A stretch of 64,000 nucleotides of DNA from Candidatus Tayloriibacteriota bacterium (GTDB lineage Bacteria; Patescibacteriota; Minisyncoccia; Phycocordibacterales; PALSA-1337). The stretch lies in NCBI GenBank assembly GCA_943350765.1, contig CALRAJ010000001.1, positions 16,873-80,872 of the forward strand, given 5' to 3'. The notes beneath the pieces are model-generated. The model searched no databases. It was not told the origin of the DNA and saw only the letters and a list, made by a program, of their open reading frames with translations. Numbering within the stretch: position 1 is the stretch's first letter; the number at the start of each line of letters is the position of its first letter. Both the position numbers and the translations under genes were made by a program. Shown here piece by piece: positions 2,216 through 63,450 of the stretch.

Positions 2216-3172
2216 ATGAAAAAAGTTTTATTATCAGGAATACAGCCTACAGGTCGACCACATATTGGCAATTATTTTGGTGCGATGAAGCAGTGGGTTG
2301 ATCTGCAGACAAGTCAGCCAGATACAGAGAAGTTTTTTATGATTGCCGACTATCATGCACTCAACTTTATTCAAAACAATGAAGAATTGAAGCAGAATAT
2401 CCTCGATGTTGTGCTGGACTATTTAGCTATTGGTCTCGATCCAAAGCAGTCAGCGATTTTTAAACAGTCAGATGTCTCGGCGCATACTGAGCTGGCGTGG
2501 ATTTTTGATACTATTACTACCATGCCGTATTTGATGCGTGCCCACGCATTCAAAGACGCCGAAGTAAAAAATAAGGAGATAGGGGTGGGGACTTTCAACT
2601 ACCCAATGCTCATGTCAGCAGACATTTTACTATATGACACAACTGTAGTACCCGTAGGTCAGGACCAGAAACAACATATCGAATATGCTCGTGATACTGC
2701 GGAAAAGTTTAATCGTATTTTTGGTGAGACATTTGTGTTGCCTGAAGCACTGATAATGAAGGAAGTGGCTGTCGTACCAGGTACTGATGGTCAGAAAATG
2801 AGTAAAAGCTATGGCAACACAATACCTCTTTTTGCTACCGATGAAGAGATTAGGAAAGCAGTGATGAGTATTGTGACGGATTCATCTGGCAGTATTCCGA
2901 AAAATGTCTACGAGATCCATAAACTTTTTCGTTCTACTACGGAGCTCGATGTTTTATACAAAGAGAAGTCAGGCAAGTACAAAGACTTAAAAGACGCCTT
3001 GATTGCTGATATTTCTGCATTTATAAAACCGCTACGGGAGAGACGGGAAGAGTTCGCTAAAAATAAAGATGCTGTATTAGCTATTCTCAAAGCTGGTGGA
3101 GAAAAGGCAAAGGCCAAGGCACAAGCAAAGATAGAGGTGGTGCGAGAAAAAATCGGGGTAAGGTTGTATTAG
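2216..3172 (+). CDS. trpS: tryptophanyl-tRNA synthetase
   Basis: HIGH-type motif (PHIGNYFG) and a KMSKS motif are present, and the size fits class I TrpRS. The ORF opens at 2165, but the MKKVLL start at 2216 matches TrpRS N-termini and follows a TGATATACT -10 box. Confidence 0.9.
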   Translation: MKKVLLSGIQPTGRPHIGNYFGAMKQWVDLQTSQPDTEKFFMIADYHALNFIQNNEELKQNILDVVLDYLAIGLDPKQSAIFKQSDVSAHTELAWIFDTITTMPYLMRAHAFKDAEVKNKEIGVGTFNYPMLMSADILLYDTTVVPVGQDQKQHIEYARDTAEKFNRIFGETFVLPEALIMKEVAVVPGTDGQKMSKSYGNTIPLFATDEEIRKAVMSIVTDSSGSIPKNVYEIHKLFRSTTELDVLYKEKSGKYKDLKDALIADISAFIKPLRERREEFAKNKDAVLAILKAGGEKAKAKAQAKIEVVREKIGVRLY

Positions 3173-3175
3173 TTA

Positions 3176-3286
3176 GGTTTTTCAAAATAGTCCTTTTTAA
3201 GGGTACGAGTATTTCCCTGGTAGGAAATTTCTGAAGTCTCGGCTACACGCCTGCGAACCCCCTTAAAAAGGACTATTTTGAAAAAC
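3176..3286. repeat. short divergent copy of the MITE-like palindromic element (core CGAGTATTTCCCTGGTAGGAAATTTCTGAAGTCTCGGCTAC)
   Basis: The arms TTTTCAAAATAGTCCTTTTTAAGGG / CCCTTAAAAAGGACTATTTTGAAAA form an inverted repeat. The core is shared with the other copies. Confidence 0.55.
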
Positions 3287-3322
3287 CTTTGTGGTGGTGG
3301 AGGTAGGTGAGAAGTTAAAAAT

Positions 3323-5140
3323 ATGTCCAAAAAAACAACAAAAGAACAATTTGGCTCTGTTTTAGAACTTTTACGCAATAGTAAGCGTCTCTTGAGGCTG
3401 GTATGGAAAGAGCAAAGAAAAATGATACTGATCATTGTTCTATTATCCCTAGGTATTTCTCTAATGCCTTTTTTGAAAAGCGGAGTACTCGCTCTTTTGG
3501 TAAATAATCTAACCAATATAAATACTGTGGGTACTGGAGCTATTACTTGGCTCTCAGTGCTTGCTGTGATGATGATTTTGGTACCAGAGTTGCTATATGG
3601 TCTAAAGAGTTATGTTGATCGTTGGTTCAGTATTGATTTACAAGAAAGTTTTGAAATCTTCTTTATTTCTAAAAAATCGACAATGGATATTGCGACCATA
3701 GAGGATCCAAAGTTTAATGACATATTGAATACTTTACAGGAGAGAGGTGTGTGGCCAATGGTAAATATGGTAGAGGACATGTTTATGAATCTTCCAAACA
3801 TTCTGGGGGTCATCATTGCTTCTATTATATTGTACACATTTAGTCCTTGGCTTTTTATAATCATTACAATTGCAGTGTTACCTAGAGTATTTGTTGAAGC
3901 GATATACGGTGATGGTGTATACGGCATATATCACGCTGAGGCATCGGTGCGAAGGCGTTTCTGGGCTTTCAGAGATTATTTTATGGATAAAAGAGATTTG
4001 ACAGAAATGAAGTTGTTTCAAAGTACTGGTTATTTTATCAAGATAATTGCTGATATTTTTCATTCGTTCAATACAAAACAAAAAACTGTCGAAAGAAAAA
4101 GAATTTTTTGGCATATGGTCGCACTTTTGGTAACGGGTGGAGCGATAGGTGGGGGTGTCATACTGGTGATTCGTAGTGTGCTCTCTGGTGAGACAGAAGT
4201 GGGGACAATGATTTTTGTAATTTCAGCTATTATTGAGCTAGAGTGGGCATTATCAGGATTTTTGATGAATTTGGCTAAACAATATAAAAACAGTTTGTTT
4301 GTATCTGATTTATTTAGGATACTGGATATAAAGTCAAATCTACCAAAGGCAAGTAATCCCTTTAAAATAAATCCAACTCAAACACCAAGAATTGTTTTTG
4401 ATGATGTTTCTTTTTCTTATCCTGGGACAAAACGAGAGGTGCTTTCTCATCTTTCTTTTACTATAGAGTCTGGAGAAAAGCTGGCACTGGTGGGTGTAAA
4501 TGGTGCTGGCAAGACTACTTTGGTAAAGCTACTCTGCCGAGTGTATGACCCTACTATTGGAAGGATATTGATAGATGGAAGGGATTTACGAGATCTGGAT
4601 ATACATAGCTGGCTTCATACACTCGGAGTACTTTTTCAAGATTACACTTCCTATCAAATGAAAGCTTCAGAGTCGATTGCATTAGGTAGAACCAGTGAGC
4701 CGTTTGACATGGATCGGGTAAAATGGGCAGCACAGGGAAGTGAGGCATCGGAGTTTATAGATGAATGGGAAAATGGATATGAACAGATGTTGGGTAAACA
4801 GTTTGAGGGTGGTATTGATCCATCAAAGGGTCAGCTTCAAAAGCTCGCTCTGGCTCGAGTGTTGTATCGTAATCCTGCTGTGCTTATTCTCGATGAGCCG
4901 ACGGCCTCCGTGGATGCCGAGTCCGAAGCAAAGATTTTTGCTAGGCTAGAGGCTTTACCAAAAGACAAGACAGTGATTCTTATTTCCCATCGCTTTTCGA
5001 CAGTGCGTACAGCAGACAAGATACTAGTTTTGAAAGACGGTATGGTGCATGAGCTGGGGTCGCATACTGAGCTGATCAAAAAAGCTGGGACCTATGCTGA
5101 AATATTTAAATTGCAAGCAAAGGGGTACAATACCGAGTAG
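3323..5140 (+). CDS. ABC transporter, fused permease/ATP-binding protein (exporter type)
   Basis: An N-terminal 6-TM domain is followed by Walker A (GVNGAGKTTL), an ABC signature-like motif (SKGQLQKLALA) and Walker B (LILDEPTASVD). Confidence 0.85.
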   Translation: MSKKTTKEQFGSVLELLRNSKRLLRLVWKEQRKMILIIVLLSLGISLMPFLKSGVLALLVNNLTNINTVGTGAITWLSVLAVMMILVPELLYGLKSYVDRWFSIDLQESFEIFFISKKSTMDIATIEDPKFNDILNTLQERGVWPMVNMVEDMFMNLPNILGVIIASIILYTFSPWLFIIITIAVLPRVFVEAIYGDGVYGIYHAEASVRRRFWAFRDYFMDKRDLTEMKLFQSTGYFIKIIADIFHSFNTKQKTVERKRIFWHMVALLVTGGAIGGGVILVIRSVLSGETEVGTMIFVISAIIELEWALSGFLMNLAKQYKNSLFVSDLFRILDIKSNLPKASNPFKINPTQTPRIVFDDVSFSYPGTKREVLSHLSFTIESGEKLALVGVNGAGKTTLVKLLCRVYDPTIGRILIDGRDLRDLDIHSWLHTLGVLFQDYTSYQMKASESIALGRTSEPFDMDRVKWAAQGSEASEFIDEWENGYEQMLGKQFEGGIDPSKGQLQKLALARVLYRNPAVLILDEPTASVDAESEAKIFARLEALPKDKTVILISHRFSTVRTADKILVLKDGMVHELGSHTELIKKAGTYAEIFKLQAKGYNTE

Positions 5141-60678: not shown

Positions 60679-62598
60679 TTACAAAAGACTATCAGGATCG
60701 ACTTTTATACTAACACTCGGCGGGAGTGACTTGAGCTTGGCGAGGAGGTCGGGGTCGATCCATTTTCCACGGGGGAGTTTGATCAAGCCGTGTAGCACAT
60801 AGTTGCCTTTGACTGTGTGGGTAAAAGCAGGAAAAATATCTGCCACATGCGGAGTTAGGGTGTTTTGAATACTATCCATTTGAGCTACTATGGCATCACG
60901 CGACCCTTCCAGAGTAATTTTTATCAAGGTATTAAATGGTGGATAGTCAAATTGTTTCCGTGCCTCTATTTCTGTGCGATAAAAGTCGATAATATTGCCA
61001 CGCAGGGCGTATTCGAGTACCTTTTCCTCGGCGTTTCTAGTCTGCATGAGAAATATATTGCGTGTCATGTAGCGTATTTTTAAAAGTAGATAAAAAATCT
61101 TTTCACTAATACGAAAATCCGGTATCGAGAAAAGTGAATCAATAGAAATGATAGCTGAGTTTTCTATTTTTTCGTGCAGATAAGATAATGCCATTTCGGT
61201 ACCGAGGAGGATACTACCTGGTGATGAATAAAACTGGGCTATTGTATCGATTACCTTTTTTTCTGTTTTAGTGGTATCAGAGTCGATACGAAAAACTTTG
61301 ACTTCTGGAAAACGGTCTTTGATCTTTTGGTCGATGAGGTCAATACCGATGCCGACCGTGCCGAGCTTCCAGCTTCCGCAGACCTTACACATCTCCTCTG
61401 CACTCCGTCTCTCACCACAGCGATGGCATAGAAAAAAGTTTTGTGCCTCATCCTTGCCTTTATGGAGAGTGATAGAAGCACTACATTTTGTACAAGTAAC
61501 AATGTTTTGACAATCTCCGCAGACGGTAGATGGTGCGAGACCTCGGCGAGTAGAGAGGATAAAGAGATGCTCGCTGTTTTCGCGACTTTGCTCGATGAGC
61601 CGTTCTACTTCTGGACTGAGAATCTTGAAACTCGCCTGTGTGCCGTCTGGCTTCTTGTGTTTACGCATATCGATAAGCTCCTGCTTTGCGGTCGAAAGTG
61701 AGCGGAGGGTAAGGGGAGTAAGCTCGACTAGCTCACCGTTTTTGTGTCGCCAAATAGTTTCGGTACGGAGTGAGATATCTCCCATTACGAGCCGAGCGTG
61801 TATCCTTTCAGCAAAATATTCTGCAAAAGTGCGAATATCTAAAAAAGGTCTGGTTTGGATTTTGTATGATTTTGAGTTTTCTTTTTCGAGAATAATGGTG
61901 GCAATATCTGTACGGGGTATCGAGAGGAATGCACCTGTCGCAACAATGAGGATTGGGTGTGATAAATCTTGAAGCTGTTTCCAGATTTCGACAAAGGACT
62001 TTTTTGCAATACCACCATGAAGGACGATAGTGTACTTTTCGATACCTTTTTCGAGGGCTTTGGCTGAGATTTTTGCATCTTCGATAGTGGGGACGCAGAA
62101 AAAGACCGAGGACTTTTTGGCAAATTGTTCACGAATGAGGCTTCGGTAGTTTGCAAAACGGTCAGCATCATCGCCTTGGACGATATATTTTTCTTGGGGT
62201 TTGTGGGCGTGGATATCTACGGATATTTTAGTTTTTAATGAGGTGATATTTTCGAGAATGATTTTTGGAAGGAGGGTATAGAAAGATGCTCCAGCAGTAC
62301 CTGCAAAGTAGTCTGCAGTGTGGAGGACGCTCTCTACATATTCTGGGCGGAGGAACTGTTTGGCTCGGAGCGAGTCGACTTTTTTGACTGCAAAGTCAGA
62401 GGACTTTAGCTCGGATTTTAGCTCGCTGGCTTTTTGGCTTTCGACGACTATCGCAGGTACTATTTTTGACCGTATTGGTACAGACACGAGGGAACCAGGT
62501 ACCACTTCCTTGGCACTAAAATATGAGAGCGTTTCTTTGCCTATGCCTTTGGCAATAGGAATAACCTGCACGATGTACATCATACTAGTATACGCCAA
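60679..62598 (-). CDS. priA: primosomal protein N' (replication restart helicase)
   Basis: A Cys4 zinc-binding domain (CGDCQ...CTKCS...CHRCG...CKVCGS) sits within an SF2 helicase core. Confidence 0.85.
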   Translation of the reverse strand: MAYTSMMYIVQVIPIAKGIGKETLSYFSAKEVVPGSLVSVPIRSKIVPAIVVESQKASELKSELKSSDFAVKKVDSLRAKQFLRPEYVESVLHTADYFAGTAGASFYTLLPKIILENITSLKTKISVDIHAHKPQEKYIVQGDDADRFANYRSLIREQFAKKSSVFFCVPTIEDAKISAKALEKGIEKYTIVLHGGIAKKSFVEIWKQLQDLSHPILIVATGAFLSIPRTDIATIILEKENSKSYKIQTRPFLDIRTFAEYFAERIHARLVMGDISLRTETIWRHKNGELVELTPLTLRSLSTAKQELIDMRKHKKPDGTQASFKILSPEVERLIEQSRENSEHLFILSTRRGLAPSTVCGDCQNIVTCTKCSASITLHKGKDEAQNFFLCHRCGERRSAEEMCKVCGSWKLGTVGIGIDLIDQKIKDRFPEVKVFRIDSDTTKTEKKVIDTIAQFYSSPGSILLGTEMALSYLHEKIENSAIISIDSLFSIPDFRISEKIFYLLLKIRYMTRNIFLMQTRNAEEKVLEYALRGNIIDFYRTEIEARKQFDYPPFNTLIKITLEGSRDAIVAQMDSIQNTLTPHVADIFPAFTHTVKGNYVLHGLIKLPRGKWIDPDLLAKLKSLPPSVSIKVDPDSLL

Positions 62599-62683
62599 TT
62601 CGAGGATTTATGAAGGGAGTGGTTGAGGTTATGTAGAGTTATGCACTTAGTATAAAAACAAATGTGTGTAATCATGTAAGTAC

Positions 62684-63082
62684 ATGAAAAAAGAATATAA
62701 TGAGTGGCATAATAAAAAGAAAGTTTTAAATGAACGAAAAGATATAGACAATATATTTTTCCGTGTAAAAGAAGTTTGGTGGACGGCACTTGGGGTAAAT
62801 ATAGGCTTTGAGCAAGATGGAAAGGGTGAGGAGTTTCGCCGACCCGTTTTAATTTTAAAAAAGTTTAATAAATATGTGGTGCTTGTTGTTCCACTTACAA
62901 CTAAGATTAAGAAAGACAATAAATATTATGTGTCATGCTCTATTGCAAATGATGATATTTTGCGTATGGCAATTATCTCGCAAATTCGCCTGATAGATAC
63001 AAAAAGGTTTATTGATAAACTCGGCGTAGCGAGTGAGGATTCGTATATAAAAATCAAAAACGCGATTAAGGCTATGCTCTAA
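62684..63082 (+). CDS. mazF: MazF/PemK/EndoA-family endoribonuclease toxin with an approximately 20-25 aa N-terminal extension; no adjacent antitoxin gene
   Basis: The product aligns well with B. subtilis EndoA: FRVKEVWWTALGVNIGFEQDGKGEEFRRPVLILKK versus [29 protein letters not shown], and ISQIRLIDTKRFIDKLGVASEDSYIKIKNAIKAML versus [35 protein letters not shown]. Confidence 0.65.
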   Translation: MKKEYNEWHNKKKVLNERKDIDNIFFRVKEVWWTALGVNIGFEQDGKGEEFRRPVLILKKFNKYVVLVVPLTTKIKKDNKYYVSCSIANDDILRMAIISQIRLIDTKRFIDKLGVASEDSYIKIKNAIKAML

Positions 63083-63216
63083 TCGCGTTCTCGAATTTGT
63101 CTGATTCGTCTTGCAACGAACCGAGCCCGAAGGCCATTTGTACTCAAAGTATATGTCTTTGCGTAATAATAGTCAAGCTCTTGTTTTCTGAGTCAAAAAC
63201 AGGTATAATTGTAAAC

Positions 63217-63450
63217 ATGAATAAATTACTAGTCACTTTTTTGTTACTCGTTGGACTGTTGTCGGTCTCGACCTCAGTGGATGCACGGACGGTGCTTGTA
63301 AAAGGCTACTATAAGCCGAGTACTGGTGCTTATGTGATGCCACATTATAAAACTACACCGAACAAGACCAAGATTGATAATTTTTCTGCAAAGGGGAATT
63401 ATAATCCGTATACAGGGAAGAGTGGAGAGGTAGATCCTTATAAATCGTAA
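63217..63450 (+). CDS. small secreted protein, 77 aa, unknown function
   Basis: A signal-peptide-like N-terminus MNKLLVTFLLLVGLLSVSTSVDA is present. A TATAAT box lies 8 nt upstream. Confidence 0.4.
   Translation: MNKLLVTFLLLVGLLSVSTSVDARTVLVKGYYKPSTGAYVMPHYKTTPNKTKIDNFSAKGNYNPYTGKSGEVDPYKS

Follow-up and report, generated by a model that had tools for sequence, protein, structure and literature searches.

MazF and PemK are the textbook toxins of toxin-antitoxin (TA) systems that belong to type II, and an "orphan" mazF gene is usually written off as decayed or as being under control in trans. The mazF-mx gene of Myxococcus xanthus is solitary, and its antitoxin, MrpC, is encoded elsewhere. 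RNA antitoxins are known from type I systems, whose toxins are typically membrane-active and below 60 aa in length (with SymE and RalR as exceptions), and from type III systems, whose toxins adopt a Kid/MazF-like fold. In the par system of Enterococcus faecalis, Fst and RNA II share a bidirectional terminator, and a structured RNA, the Rfam pemK RNA motif, has been reported near pemK genes. In Bacillus subtilis, the 3'-overlapping RNA antitoxins of txpA/RatA, bsrG/SR4, bsrE/SR5, and yonT/SR6 have been described (PMC6562991).

The locus considered here lies in a stretch of 64,000 nucleotides of a Candidatus Tayloriibacteriota bacterium (the window, i.e., the whole stretch of DNA that was analysed), and combines a mazF-like gene with a small-RNA (sRNA) gene that runs towards it from the opposite strand. 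Taking into account the evidence set out below, we lean towards reading it as a compact, mobile, TA-like module of two components, a MazF/PemK-family RNase and a convergent sRNA acting as its antitoxin or negative regulator.

The MazF-like Gene and Its Product

The mazF-like ORF (62684..63082, plus strand) starts with ATG and encodes a product of 132 aa, in which the three strings quoted by the earlier note (GFEQDGKGEEFRRPVLIL, SQIRLIDTKRFIDKLGVASEDSYIKIKNAIKAML, and MKKEYNEWHNKKKVLNERKDIDN) are all present. The EndoA/MazF-family identity that the note had proposed has been borne out by Pfam PF02452 (PemK_toxin, E=5.2e-14, 52.8 bits where the cut-off is 23.1) and by the fold. The AlphaFold model (pLDDT 81, pTM 0.76) shows the SH3-like barrel of the MazF/Kid/CcdB type, and Foldseek aligns it with MazF of S. 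aureus, M. tuberculosis, B. subtilis, and E. coli at a probability of 1.0 and TM values of 0.64-0.79. In contrast to the PF02452 match, the NCBIfam equivalog models for MazF and ChpB match only weakly and far under their cut-offs, and the protein therefore belongs to a distinct subfamily.

The PF02452 alignment places residues 30-132, the PemK domain of this plus-strand gene, on profile positions 4-109 and thus leaves about 29 residues N-terminal to the domain. This part (residues 1-29, 62684-62770, plus strand) is conserved among homologues, and the Lys-rich extension noticed earlier is accordingly real and occurs throughout the family; its residues W8 and K12 are invariant in 25 homologues. 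It is basic (net charge about +3), is predicted to be helical with a pLDDT of 55-68, and lies outside the part of the model that Foldseek covers with known MazF structures.

Within the domain, E43, Q44, and R53 are likewise invariant among the 25 homologues, and T72 is kept in at least 90% of them and replaced by Ser otherwise. R53 and T72 align with the Arg of VRPV and the Thr of AAIT in S. aureus MazF, and we take their equivalents to be R25/T48 in B. subtilis and R28/T51 in K. pneumoniae. For the K. pneumoniae MazF, Arg28 and Thr51 are described as critical (PMC8086154). The catalytic residues, on which the reading of the earlier note depended, are hence found in place on alignment, and the product is a real PemK/MazF-family protein that retains the catalytic Arg and Thr positions; its toxicity is presumed.

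Flanks of the Gene and the Missing Protein Antitoxin

Upstream, the mazF-like gene is separated by 85-100 bp from the divergent priA ORF, which starts at 62598 (TTG) or, according to the gene caller, at 62583. The gap has no plus-strand ORF of at least 20 aa, in agreement with what had been read from it before, and the intergenic region 62599..62683 (plus strand) holds neither an ORF nor a repeat array nor an Rfam match. The only tandem array beside the gene, 2 x 12 nt, is located within priA. The mazF promoter must sit in 62599..62683, where it has no confident location. A -10-like hexamer ending 5-9 nt before the ATG has been found in 38 of 76 related loci, compared with 9-18 of 76 in control windows, which hints that the mazF mRNA may be leaderless in about half of the loci. 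The absence of a Shine-Dalgarno-like (SD-like) motif has been considered as a special trait of mazF and rejected, since such a motif occurs in just 1 of 38 long ORFs of the window.

Downstream, the next gene, encoding a 77-aa signal-peptide protein, starts at 63217, and the 134 bp between the mazF-like stop and this start contain no MazE-like ORF, as had also been stated. The same holds beyond the window. In three genomes with different neighbours, no small gene has been called adjoining the mazF-like gene. All-against-all clustering of the flanking ORFs of 82 related loci has yielded no family present in more than 6 loci, and the two largest clusters as well as two of the three five-locus clusters consist of spurious ORFs lying over the sRNA. 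A gene for MazE, PemI, an AbrB-fold protein, or another protein antitoxin adjoins the toxin in none of the 82 loci.

With regard to protein antitoxins, the solitary arrangement assumed in the earlier note thus extends to the relatives. The further statement that nothing lies nearby does not survive, because the 134-bp spacer harbours an sRNA gene on the minus strand that has a promoter and a terminator of its own, and a convergent sRNA gene of this kind accompanies the toxin gene in nearly every related locus.

A Convergent Small-RNA Gene

The sRNA gene lies on the minus strand inside the 134-bp spacer and overlaps the 3' end of mazF. Its sigma70-type promoter (63148..63176, minus strand) is the best match of the region, with 10 of 12 positions, and consists of a -35 box TTGACT at 63176-63171, a 17-nt spacer, and a -10 box TATACT at 63153-63148. 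The predicted sRNA (63049..63141, minus strand) measures about 86-93 nt, from a 5' end at A63141, 7 nt past the -10 box, to a U-tract at 63060-63049 within the mazF CDS. The match to covariance model (CM) R1 (63054-63142, minus strand) scores 102 bits (E=6e-23) and is the sole copy within the 64-kb window, and the MFE of the RNA is -36.1 kcal/mol (z=-5.8 relative to shuffles). The gene as such is well supported by these sequence features, and expression and transcript ends are predicted from the same sequence.

The predicted RNA, of which all parts are given on the minus strand, begins with a single-stranded 5' tail, ACAAAU (63136..63141), which continues into the first G of hairpin H1 (ACAAAUG) and corresponds to the family consensus U-A-Y-A-A-A-Y; its three central A are 98-100% conserved in 47 sequences. 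Hairpin H1 (63124..63135, GGCC-UUCG-GGCU) carries the UUCG loop in 41 of 47 sequences, and its stem covaries, with the variants GGC/GCC, GCC/GGC, and GCG-UUUA-CGC. Hairpin H2 (63103..63122) has 8 bp and a GCAA tetraloop; its sequence varies in the family and its shape is kept, with a GNRA loop in 32 and UUCG in 4 of the 47 sequences. A conserved single-stranded CAGA follows H2, and an A-rich linker leads to hairpin H3 (63061..63087), the core of a bidirectional intrinsic terminator, which is identified by inverted repeat I1, covariation, and RNAalifold.

In H3, the mazF stop codon (63080-63082) appears as its complement in the 5' arm, and the 3' arm corresponds to the codons for ...AIKA, so that the last ~8 codons of the toxin gene make up part of the sRNA terminator. 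H3 is flanked on its 5' side by an A-tract at 63088-63094, imperfect in the window (UCGAGAA), and on its 3' side by the U-tract mentioned above; over the family, the U-tract is 83-100% and the A-tract 68-94% conserved. On the plus strand, the T-tract after H3 is correspondingly imperfect in the window (TTCTCG). The overlap of toxin gene and sRNA gene is restricted to this shared terminator. If the shared hairpin ends both transcripts efficiently, the overlap comprises just about 30-45 nt including the hairpin loop and is largely locked in stable hairpins, which speaks against the reading proposed here.

The stretch of about 100 nt behind the stop codon is conserved over 87 loci with unrelated flanks. 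The minus-strand promoter pattern TTGAC[ATG]-N16-18-TAnnnT has been found in 74 of 76 distinct loci, with freely varying spacer sequence, and CM matches lie on the minus strand beside mazF at almost all of the Patescibacteria loci searched, which span 44-100% protein identity and have unrelated flanks. Compensatory double changes support all 8 pairs of H2, all 12 pairs of the H3 core, and 22 of 24 pairs overall. In the covariation alignment, 97% of the cells are paired, none of 500 shuffles is as good, and slid controls reach 31-45%; as the model itself guided this alignment and its sequences share ancestry, these statistics lean towards structure, a bias that is offset by single-sequence folds and by a fold based on MAFFT. 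Of 71 single-sequence MFE folds, almost all contain H1 and H2, and the terminator hairpin appears in all but ~14 loci, which form one sub-clade; RNAalifold on the plain MAFFT alignment has returned the same three hairpins, including the H3 helix.

The strand is indicated by a count of 143 G·U cells compared with 5 A·C cells and by a pairing of 97.0% in the minus-strand reading compared with 83.8% in the plus-strand reading, and the UUCG and GNRA loops arise only in the former. A micro-ORF starting at a conserved AUG of the sRNA has been considered and rejected, as the AUG is missing in 40 of 74 loci and the peptides range from 7 to 35 aa.

Spread and Mobility of the Pair

The family comprises 519 homologues, almost all of 128-132 aa, from Patescibacteria metagenome-assembled genomes, and a profile search has collected 293 clusters (50% identity) at E<=1e-30 and 1,864 at E<=1e-10. 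The related loci were obtained by an alignment-based metagenome scan; a contig scan with the single protein had yielded just 5. Homologues at 72-86% identity are placed amid unrelated genes, both the mazF-like gene and the RNA are absent from the three nearest priA relatives (88, 64, and 63% identity), and on one contig the entire toxin-sRNA module is present twice in tandem. More distant homologues have been found on plasmids of Nitratiruptor and Helicobacter and in the Campylobacter CJIE4 prophage, where no typical MazE is present. The suggestion of a domesticated housekeeping RNase, which had been offered as one way to explain the orphan gene, is disfavoured by the unrelated contexts, the absence from the priA relatives, the tandem copies, and the plasmid and prophage homologues. 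Toxin gene and sRNA gene are strictly linked and mobile as a pair. A clean "empty site" has not been found, the closest relative (priA 88% identical) differing in the genes beyond priA.

By-eye inspection of the Campylobacterota loci has revealed minus-strand promoter-like boxes and hairpins downstream of the homologues, and CMs R1 and R2 gave no match at Campylobacterota or Latilactobacillus-phage loci. A search by name for the CJIE4 homologue in the C. jejuni dRNA-seq supplements (PMC3656092) returned nothing. Among IMG/VR viral contigs, the H1 motif gave 16 matches, all of them chance occurrences in GC-rich coding sequence with no mazF nearby, a second motif gave 0 matches, and a protein-pattern scan gave 0 relatives.

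Proposed Mechanism and Alternative Explanations

We infer an antitoxin role of the sRNA, and likewise every step of neutralisation, from the features described above. The sRNA would stand in for the missing MazE as antitoxin or negative regulator. When abundant, it would pair with the mazF mRNA at its 3' end, and the first contact would be made loop-to-loop at the terminator, like in bsrG/SR4 and txpA/RatA of B. subtilis and in par of E. faecalis. The resulting mRNA-sRNA duplex would lay the mRNA open to RNase III and 3' exonucleases. The part of the sRNA outside the overlap is no more complementary to the cognate mazF 5' region than to non-cognate ones (Mann-Whitney p=0.33), as judged by the rank test alone, some of the duplex energies being artefactual; any antisense action must therefore use the short 3' overlap alone.

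The deep conservation of the 5' tail, the UUCG hairpin, and the GNRA hairpin outside this overlap suggests that the RNA is also recognised by protein. A MazF-like dimer could plausibly bind the sRNA via the family-specific basic N-terminal helix, and such binding would amount either to a direct neutralisation of the type III kind or to the capture of a pseudo-substrate. Direct binding of the sRNA to the toxin protein is possible, and it is hinted at by the conserved single-stranded motifs and by the basic helix.

The strongest of the alternatives, which we nevertheless hold to be unlikely, accepts the sRNA as real and denies it the antitoxin role. It would be a cis-antisense fine-tuner or a termination/insulation device, and the MazF-like protein would be controlled by an unlinked antitoxin, by proteolysis, or by a low intrinsic toxicity. 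The antisense RNA aMEF at E. coli mazEF stimulates expression and does not repress it (PMC8749433), and at the present locus there is just a short overlap, with no complementarity to the mazF 5' region; furthermore, the genome has been examined as a 64-kb window only, and an antitoxin could be encoded elsewhere. However, the pair moves and duplicates as a unit across unrelated contexts, and independent gain and loss of the module is hard to reconcile with an antitoxin encoded elsewhere. Conservation of the promoter, of the 5' tail, and of the two hairpins outside the overlap reaches down to 44% protein identity, far beyond the needs of an insulator or terminator.

It appears less probable still that protein and RNA form a ribonucleoprotein or an enzyme-substrate pair with another function, e.g., a defence effector that senses phage or stress and is restrained or guided by the RNA, or an RNase that mainly cuts the sRNA. 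The conserved single-stranded motifs (UAYAAAY in the 5' tail, CAGA behind H2), the family-specific basic helix, and the location of homologues on a prophage and on plasmids would suit such a function, as would the match to PHROG phrog_9567 ("MazF-like growth inhibitor"), which takes in the N-terminal extension. On the other hand, the PADLOC defence models give no match at the locus, and no further conserved gene accompanies the pair. This explanation shares ground with the type III-like variant of the module proposed here, and the two are inseparable by sequence alone.

The proposal of the earlier note that the N-terminal extension acts in cis as an intramolecular antitoxin, which would make the gene a self-inhibited toxin, is very improbable. 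The extension is conserved, with its invariant W8 and K12, and predicted to be helical, and a Trp in MazE tails is known to dock on MazF. The MazE tails that fill the MazF groove are acidic, whereas the extension is basic and modelled with modest pLDDT, and a cis antitoxin leaves the strictly linked sRNA gene unexplained. Least probable of all is that the conserved element behind the gene is a structure in the plus-strand 3'-UTR of mazF, a DNA-level site, or a small protein gene: H3 is palindromic enough for weaker plus-strand CM matches (25-41 bits), T-tracts occur on both strands, and short minus-strand ORFs cover the element at some loci, but the strand signal, the loops, and the conserved minus-strand -35 and -10 boxes at a spacing of 16-18 nt oppose a plus-strand element, H1 and H2 lie beyond the plus-strand terminator, and the missing AUG and varying peptides oppose a protein.

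If the toxin-sRNA module is what we propose, a whole subfamily of "orphan" mazF genes is paired with RNA, and the principle of the RNA antitoxin would reach the best-known family of protein-antitoxin toxins. Type I (antisense) and type III (protein-binding RNA) would be less sharply divided, and the ultra-small CPR bacteria, in which few regulators can be recognised, would acquire a defined module of sRNA and protein. The sequence encoding the toxin C-terminus (KIKNAIKAML) would be a dual-use sequence, serving also as terminator of its own antisense RNA, and annotation pipelines restricted to neighbouring ORFs would systematically miss TA partners. The homologues of Campylobacter and Helicobacter may provide a cultivable test system.

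Comparison with Known Systems

In the searched literature, we have found no counterpart of the sRNA and no report of such an RNA pairing for the MazF/PemK toxin family. The Rfam pemK motif differs from the present element: with Rfam models, this motif included, both strands of 62500-63400 have given only chance matches of the snoRNA type at E up to 10, none of them on the element. The mazF-mx gene of M. xanthus is similar as a MazF homologue that lacks an adjacent mazE (PMC4803016); its partner is an unlinked protein regulator, whereas the partner here is a linked sRNA gene. The aMEF RNA is likewise an antisense RNA at a mazF locus, but it accompanies a full MazE-MazF pair, its effect on expression is stimulatory, and its promoter is poorly conserved (PMC8749433), in contrast to the present locus, which lacks MazE and has a highly conserved promoter and RNA structure.

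With the type II systems MazEF, PemIK, and EndoA-EndoAI (YdcDE), the toxin shares PF02452, the fold, and the catalytic Arg and Thr positions. It differs in its 29-aa basic N-terminal extension and in having no adjacent, co-oriented protein antitoxin gene (82 loci), and its partner is a downstream, convergent RNA gene instead of an upstream, co-transcribed one. The type III systems (ToxIN, CptIN, TenpIN, and AbiQ/antiQ) resemble the locus in that an endoribonuclease toxin is paired with an RNA and not with a protein. Here, however, the RNA is single, non-repetitive, and encoded on the opposite strand, with no tandem-repeat array upstream, and the toxin is a true member of PF02452 and not of the ToxN/AbiQ family. 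Small membrane peptides make up most of the known type I toxins, and the known type III antitoxins consist of tandem repeats; the locus matches neither class.

The 3'-overlapping type I systems are alike in the convergent orientation of toxin and sRNA, the complementary 3' ends, the strong promoter of the sRNA, and a terminator loop available for the first contact (PMC6562991). A cis-encoded antisense RNA gene that overlaps the toxin is present here too, by genomic architecture only. The toxin is a soluble, RNase-fold protein of 132 aa and not a hydrophobic, membrane-active peptide of less than 60 aa, the par-like 5' repeats and 5' complementarity are absent, and the overlap is confined to the terminator, whereas the non-overlapping RNA is strongly conserved in sequence and structure. 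Based on these likenesses and differences, we see an even chance that the locus represents a large, unrecognised TA class, a type I/III hybrid in which an N-terminally extended MazF/PemK toxin is neutralised by a single, non-repetitive, convergent, structured sRNA sharing a bidirectional terminator with it, and which would be common across Patescibacteria and probably also occur on Campylobacterota plasmids and prophages.

A MazF-Family Protein With a Conserved Extension

The ORF at 62684-63082 (+) starts with ATG and encodes 132 aa, as the earlier note had placed it, and all three peptide strings quoted there are present in the product. The Pfam family PF02452 (PemK_toxin) matches this product with E=5.2e-14 and 52.8 bits (Pfam cut-off 23.1 bits), the NCBIfam MazF and ChpB equivalog models match it weakly, and at the sequence level solved MazF/EndoA chains match it only marginally (E about 0.04). 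An AlphaFold model with 25 homologues as input (pLDDT 81, pTM 0.76) has been matched by Foldseek to MazF of S. aureus, M. tuberculosis, B. subtilis, and E. coli at a probability of 1.0. Among the 25 homologues (49-100% identity), R53 never varies and T72 hardly does, and the two correspond in alignment to the S. aureus MazF Arg and Thr; in K. pneumoniae MazF the same pair has been shown to be critical (PMC8086154). Profile, fold, and catalytic residues all pass, and the protein belongs to the PemK/MazF family that the earlier note had proposed, with the catalytic residues retained.

The N-terminal extension noticed in the same reading has likewise been found: the PF02452 match spans residues 30-132 and leaves ∼29 residues ahead of the domain. 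Since almost all of 519 homologues are 128-132 aa long and W8 and K12 within the extension are invariant in the 25, it is not an annotation artefact and is present family-wide. Its residues 5-16 are predicted as a helix with modest confidence.

A Convergent Small RNA Gene Beside mazF

No ORF has been found in the 85-100 bp between the gene and the divergent priA, nor in the 134 bp to the downstream gene for a 77-aa signal-peptide protein, in agreement with the first reading. The start of priA is ambiguous (the longest ORF, from TTG 62598, has 639 aa; the public gene call has 634 aa and starts at 62583); this copy lacks a recorded Pfam PriA domain, although relatives carry PF17764. The homologues at 80% and 72% identity lie between miaA and parB and between a tRNA cluster and an HSP20 gene, and no small neighbour gene is called at the locus in either genome. 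When every ORF of 30 aa or more located up to 700-800 bp away from the gene was clustered for 82 non-redundant loci, no flanking family occurred in more than six, and the two largest clusters as well as two of the three five-locus clusters consisted of spurious ORFs over conserved non-coding DNA.

This conserved DNA comprises ∼100 nt directly 3' of the stop codon, which are preserved at nearly all of 87 collected loci (protein identity 44-100%) despite unrelated other neighbours. Read on the minus strand, the conserved blocks make up a complete small-RNA (sRNA) gene convergent with mazF. A promoter of the form TTGAC[ATG]-N16-18-TAnnnT, with a spacer free in sequence, occurs in 74 of 76 distinct loci; the copy in the window (63176-63148, minus strand, TTGACT-17-TATACT) is the best sigma70-type match in the region. 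From promoter and conserved structure, the sRNA is predicted to run from about 63141 to about 63050-63056 (-). According to an alignment of 47 sequences, it opens with a 5' tail of consensus U-A-Y-A-A-A-Y, the three A positions of which are 98-100% conserved, followed on the same strand by hairpin H1 (3-4 bp stem, UUCG loop in 41/47) and hairpin H2, whose stem of 5-9 bp is free in sequence and whose loop is GNRA in 32/47 and UUCG in 4/47. An A-rich linker leads to the long terminator hairpin H3, which holds the complement of the mazF stop codon in its 5' arm and the last toxin codons in its 3' arm, and the U-tract that follows is 83-100% conserved. The predicted RNA of the window folds at -36.1 kcal/mol (z=-5.8 vs dinucleotide shuffles).

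In a sub-clade (L055, L062, L073, L078, L094, L096, L050, L075, L081, L086, and others) the proteins are 7-10 residues longer at the C-terminus. These loci keep the promoter, 5' tail, H1, and H2 and lack a canonical H3 at the usual place, so the sRNA may extend further into the coding sequence with a larger overlap.

In the stretch 63181-63219, the downstream gene (63217-63450) is preceded by a perfect TATAAT (63204-63209), just 7 nt from its ATG, and by TTGTTT 17 nt further upstream; its mRNA may be leaderless. This promoter stands back-to-back with that of the sRNA, and the sRNA and the two promoters fully account for the 134-bp spacer. Shine-Dalgarno motifs are nearly absent from this genome: in the whole 64-kb window, one at -16 to -5 precedes 1 of 38 long ORFs. 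Of the related loci, 38/76 have a -10-like hexamer that stops 5-9 nt ahead of the mazF ATG (vs 9-18/76 in control windows), which hints at leaderless toxin mRNAs.

Support for the RNA Structure

H1 and H2 recur almost throughout 71 single-sequence minimum-free-energy folds, in which the terminator hairpin is absent from about 14 loci of one sub-clade and formed in the rest, and RNAalifold has predicted the same helices on a plain MAFFT alignment of 12 sequences. The covariance model R1, built from these 12, has a minus-strand match directly beside mazF in nearly every locus searched, recovers three loci with distorted gene ends (L064, L072, L077), and matches 63054-63142 (-) as the sole copy in the 64 kb (102 bits, E=6e-23). 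A broader model, R2, matches the same copy and every more divergent Patescibacteria locus searched, including both copies of a tandem duplication. In the 47-sequence alignment, standard pairs fill 97% of cells and compensatory double changes are seen at 22 of 24 paired positions; 0 of 500 column shuffles have reached the observed pairing and covariation values, and pairing falls to 31-45% when partners are slid by 1-3 columns. As this alignment is fitted to the model and its sequences are related, these statistics lean towards structure, for which the model-free folds are the counterweight. The strand assignment is independent of the model: G·U cells outnumber A·C cells (143 vs 5), pairing is 97.0% on the minus and 83.8% on the plus strand, and canonical UUCG and GNRA tetraloops appear only in the minus-strand reading.

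A reading of the element as a small protein gene has been rejected, as an AUG at the conserved position is missing in 40/74 loci, the peptides would have 7-35 aa, and H2 changes length by non-multiples of three. Neither a relevant Rfam match on either strand of the region, even at E up to 10, nor tandem repeats at the locus have been found. That the sRNA gene exists and is linked to the toxin gene is, in our view, very probable. The mazF-like gene and this well-supported sRNA gene, apparently not described before, are the two halves of a conserved module. The earlier description of an orphan toxin with nothing nearby has stood with regard to an adjacent protein antitoxin, which is lacking across the 82 loci, but not with regard to RNA, as the sRNA element adjoins the gene in nearly all 87.

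Distribution and Mobility

Among 1.84 billion representatives, a profile search has returned 293 clusters at E<=1e-30 and 1,864 at E<=1e-10; nearly all of the top 150 are full-length matches that take in the N-terminal extension, and the source names point to Patescibacteria (Parcubacteria, Paceibacteria, and Vogelbacteria lineages). The extension is also kept in more distant homologues, carried by a Nitratiruptor plasmid, by small Helicobacter plasmids, and by the Campylobacter CJIE4 prophage, where the gene lies between terminase and portal; a MazE-type neighbour is absent from all of them. Outside the CPR, sRNA-like features have been assessed by inspection and single-sequence folding only: minus-strand TTGCAT-17-TATAAT followed by AUAAAU and two hairpins (Nitratiruptor plasmid), an extended -10 box and three hairpins (H. 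suis plasmid), and a GC-rich hairpin across the stop codon followed by a U-rich tail (CJIE4). The covariance models have no match at these three homologues. Directly downstream of the Nitratiruptor plasmid homologue (L015, NZ_AP023062.1) lies a 62-aa ribbon-helix-helix-like ORF (2955-3143, MQDKRMTQKTIRVEDDLWDKFKKIA...), whose start is overlapped by the putative sRNA promoter on the minus strand; the ORF may encode a protein antitoxin or regulator of that lineage, or simply be a plasmid CopG-like gene. A 29%-identical homologue in Latilactobacillus phage TMW 1.1365 P2 (L114) lies beside an integrase gene; a same-strand near-consensus promoter, TTGACA-17-TATTAT, overlaps its 3' end, with a strong terminator about 110 nt further on, and this region (1649-1800) may be a co-directional sRNA gene rather than a convergent one.

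At one locus (L095), two tandem paralogues (1580-2046 and 2974-3456) lie about 1 kb apart on one contig, separated by a methyltransferase-like ORF, and each has its own convergent sRNA copy (covariance-model matches 1962-2046 and 3403-3456), which indicates that the module duplicates as a toxin-plus-RNA unit. The suggestion of a domesticated housekeeping RNase is disfavoured in view of these tandem copies, the unrelated neighbours, the plasmid and prophage homologues, and the absence of gene and RNA next to priA in its three nearest relatives (88, 64, and 63% identity); the gene behaves as part of a module that is accessory and mobile. Of six loci checked, two have a tRNA gene directly next to the module, with tRNA-Leu about 20 nt beyond the sRNA promoter (L001, 5514-5597) and tRNA-Phe about 115 nt upstream of mazF (L004, 4813-4886), which may hint at insertion near tRNA genes.

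A Predicted Shared Terminator and Possible Mechanisms

With an A-tract before it and a U-tract behind it, H3 is shaped like a bidirectional intrinsic terminator. Transcription of mazF would stop at H3 just past the mazF stop codon and that of the sRNA within the last ∼10 mazF codons, which would leave about 30-45 nt of complementarity between the two RNAs, hairpin loop included. Outside this overlap, the sRNA shows no cognate-specific complementarity to the mazF 5' region, so an antisense mechanism would depend on the 3' overlap. The codons of K-I-K-N-A-I-K-A-M-L (63046-63082; same place in related loci) have a dual use as 3' arm and U-tract of the sRNA terminator, and C-terminal conservation of the protein may be partly RNA-driven.

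The sRNA parts outside the overlap are conserved far more deeply than an antisense function requires. MazF proteins bind single-stranded RNA, and the basic helix at the N-terminus is particular to this subfamily. The protein may therefore recognise the sRNA directly, in which case the RNA would be a type III-like inhibitor or pseudo-substrate, and this is a serious alternative or addition to antisense pairing. Overall, we lean slightly towards a role of the sRNA as RNA antitoxin or negative regulator; its expression, the toxicity of the protein, and its neutralisation are all inferred.

Comparison With Known Toxin-Antitoxin Systems

The module is a variant of a known system type and, as far as we have found, not previously described: a full-text search of incomplete coverage has turned up no account of a MazF/PemK toxin partnered by a convergent sRNA, in Patescibacteria or elsewhere. 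The adjacent protein antitoxin that defines type II is absent, and the repeat-array layout of type III is lacking. In E. coli, the antisense RNA aMEF stimulates expression and accompanies a full MazEF pair (PMC8749433). In Myxococcus, the solitary mazF-mx is partnered by an unlinked protein, whereas here an sRNA gene is linked. With type I, the module shares the architectural feature of a cis-antisense RNA, although the toxin is not of the usual type I kind. The par locus of E. faecalis has the layout predicted here. The same layout is also that of txpA/RatA, bsrG/SR4, bsrE/SR5, and yonT/SR6 of B. subtilis, in which the antitoxin RNA base-pairs with the toxin mRNA through the 3' ends of both, with first contact at the SR4 terminator loop in bsrG/SR4, and the duplex is afterwards cleaved by RNase III (PMC6562991).
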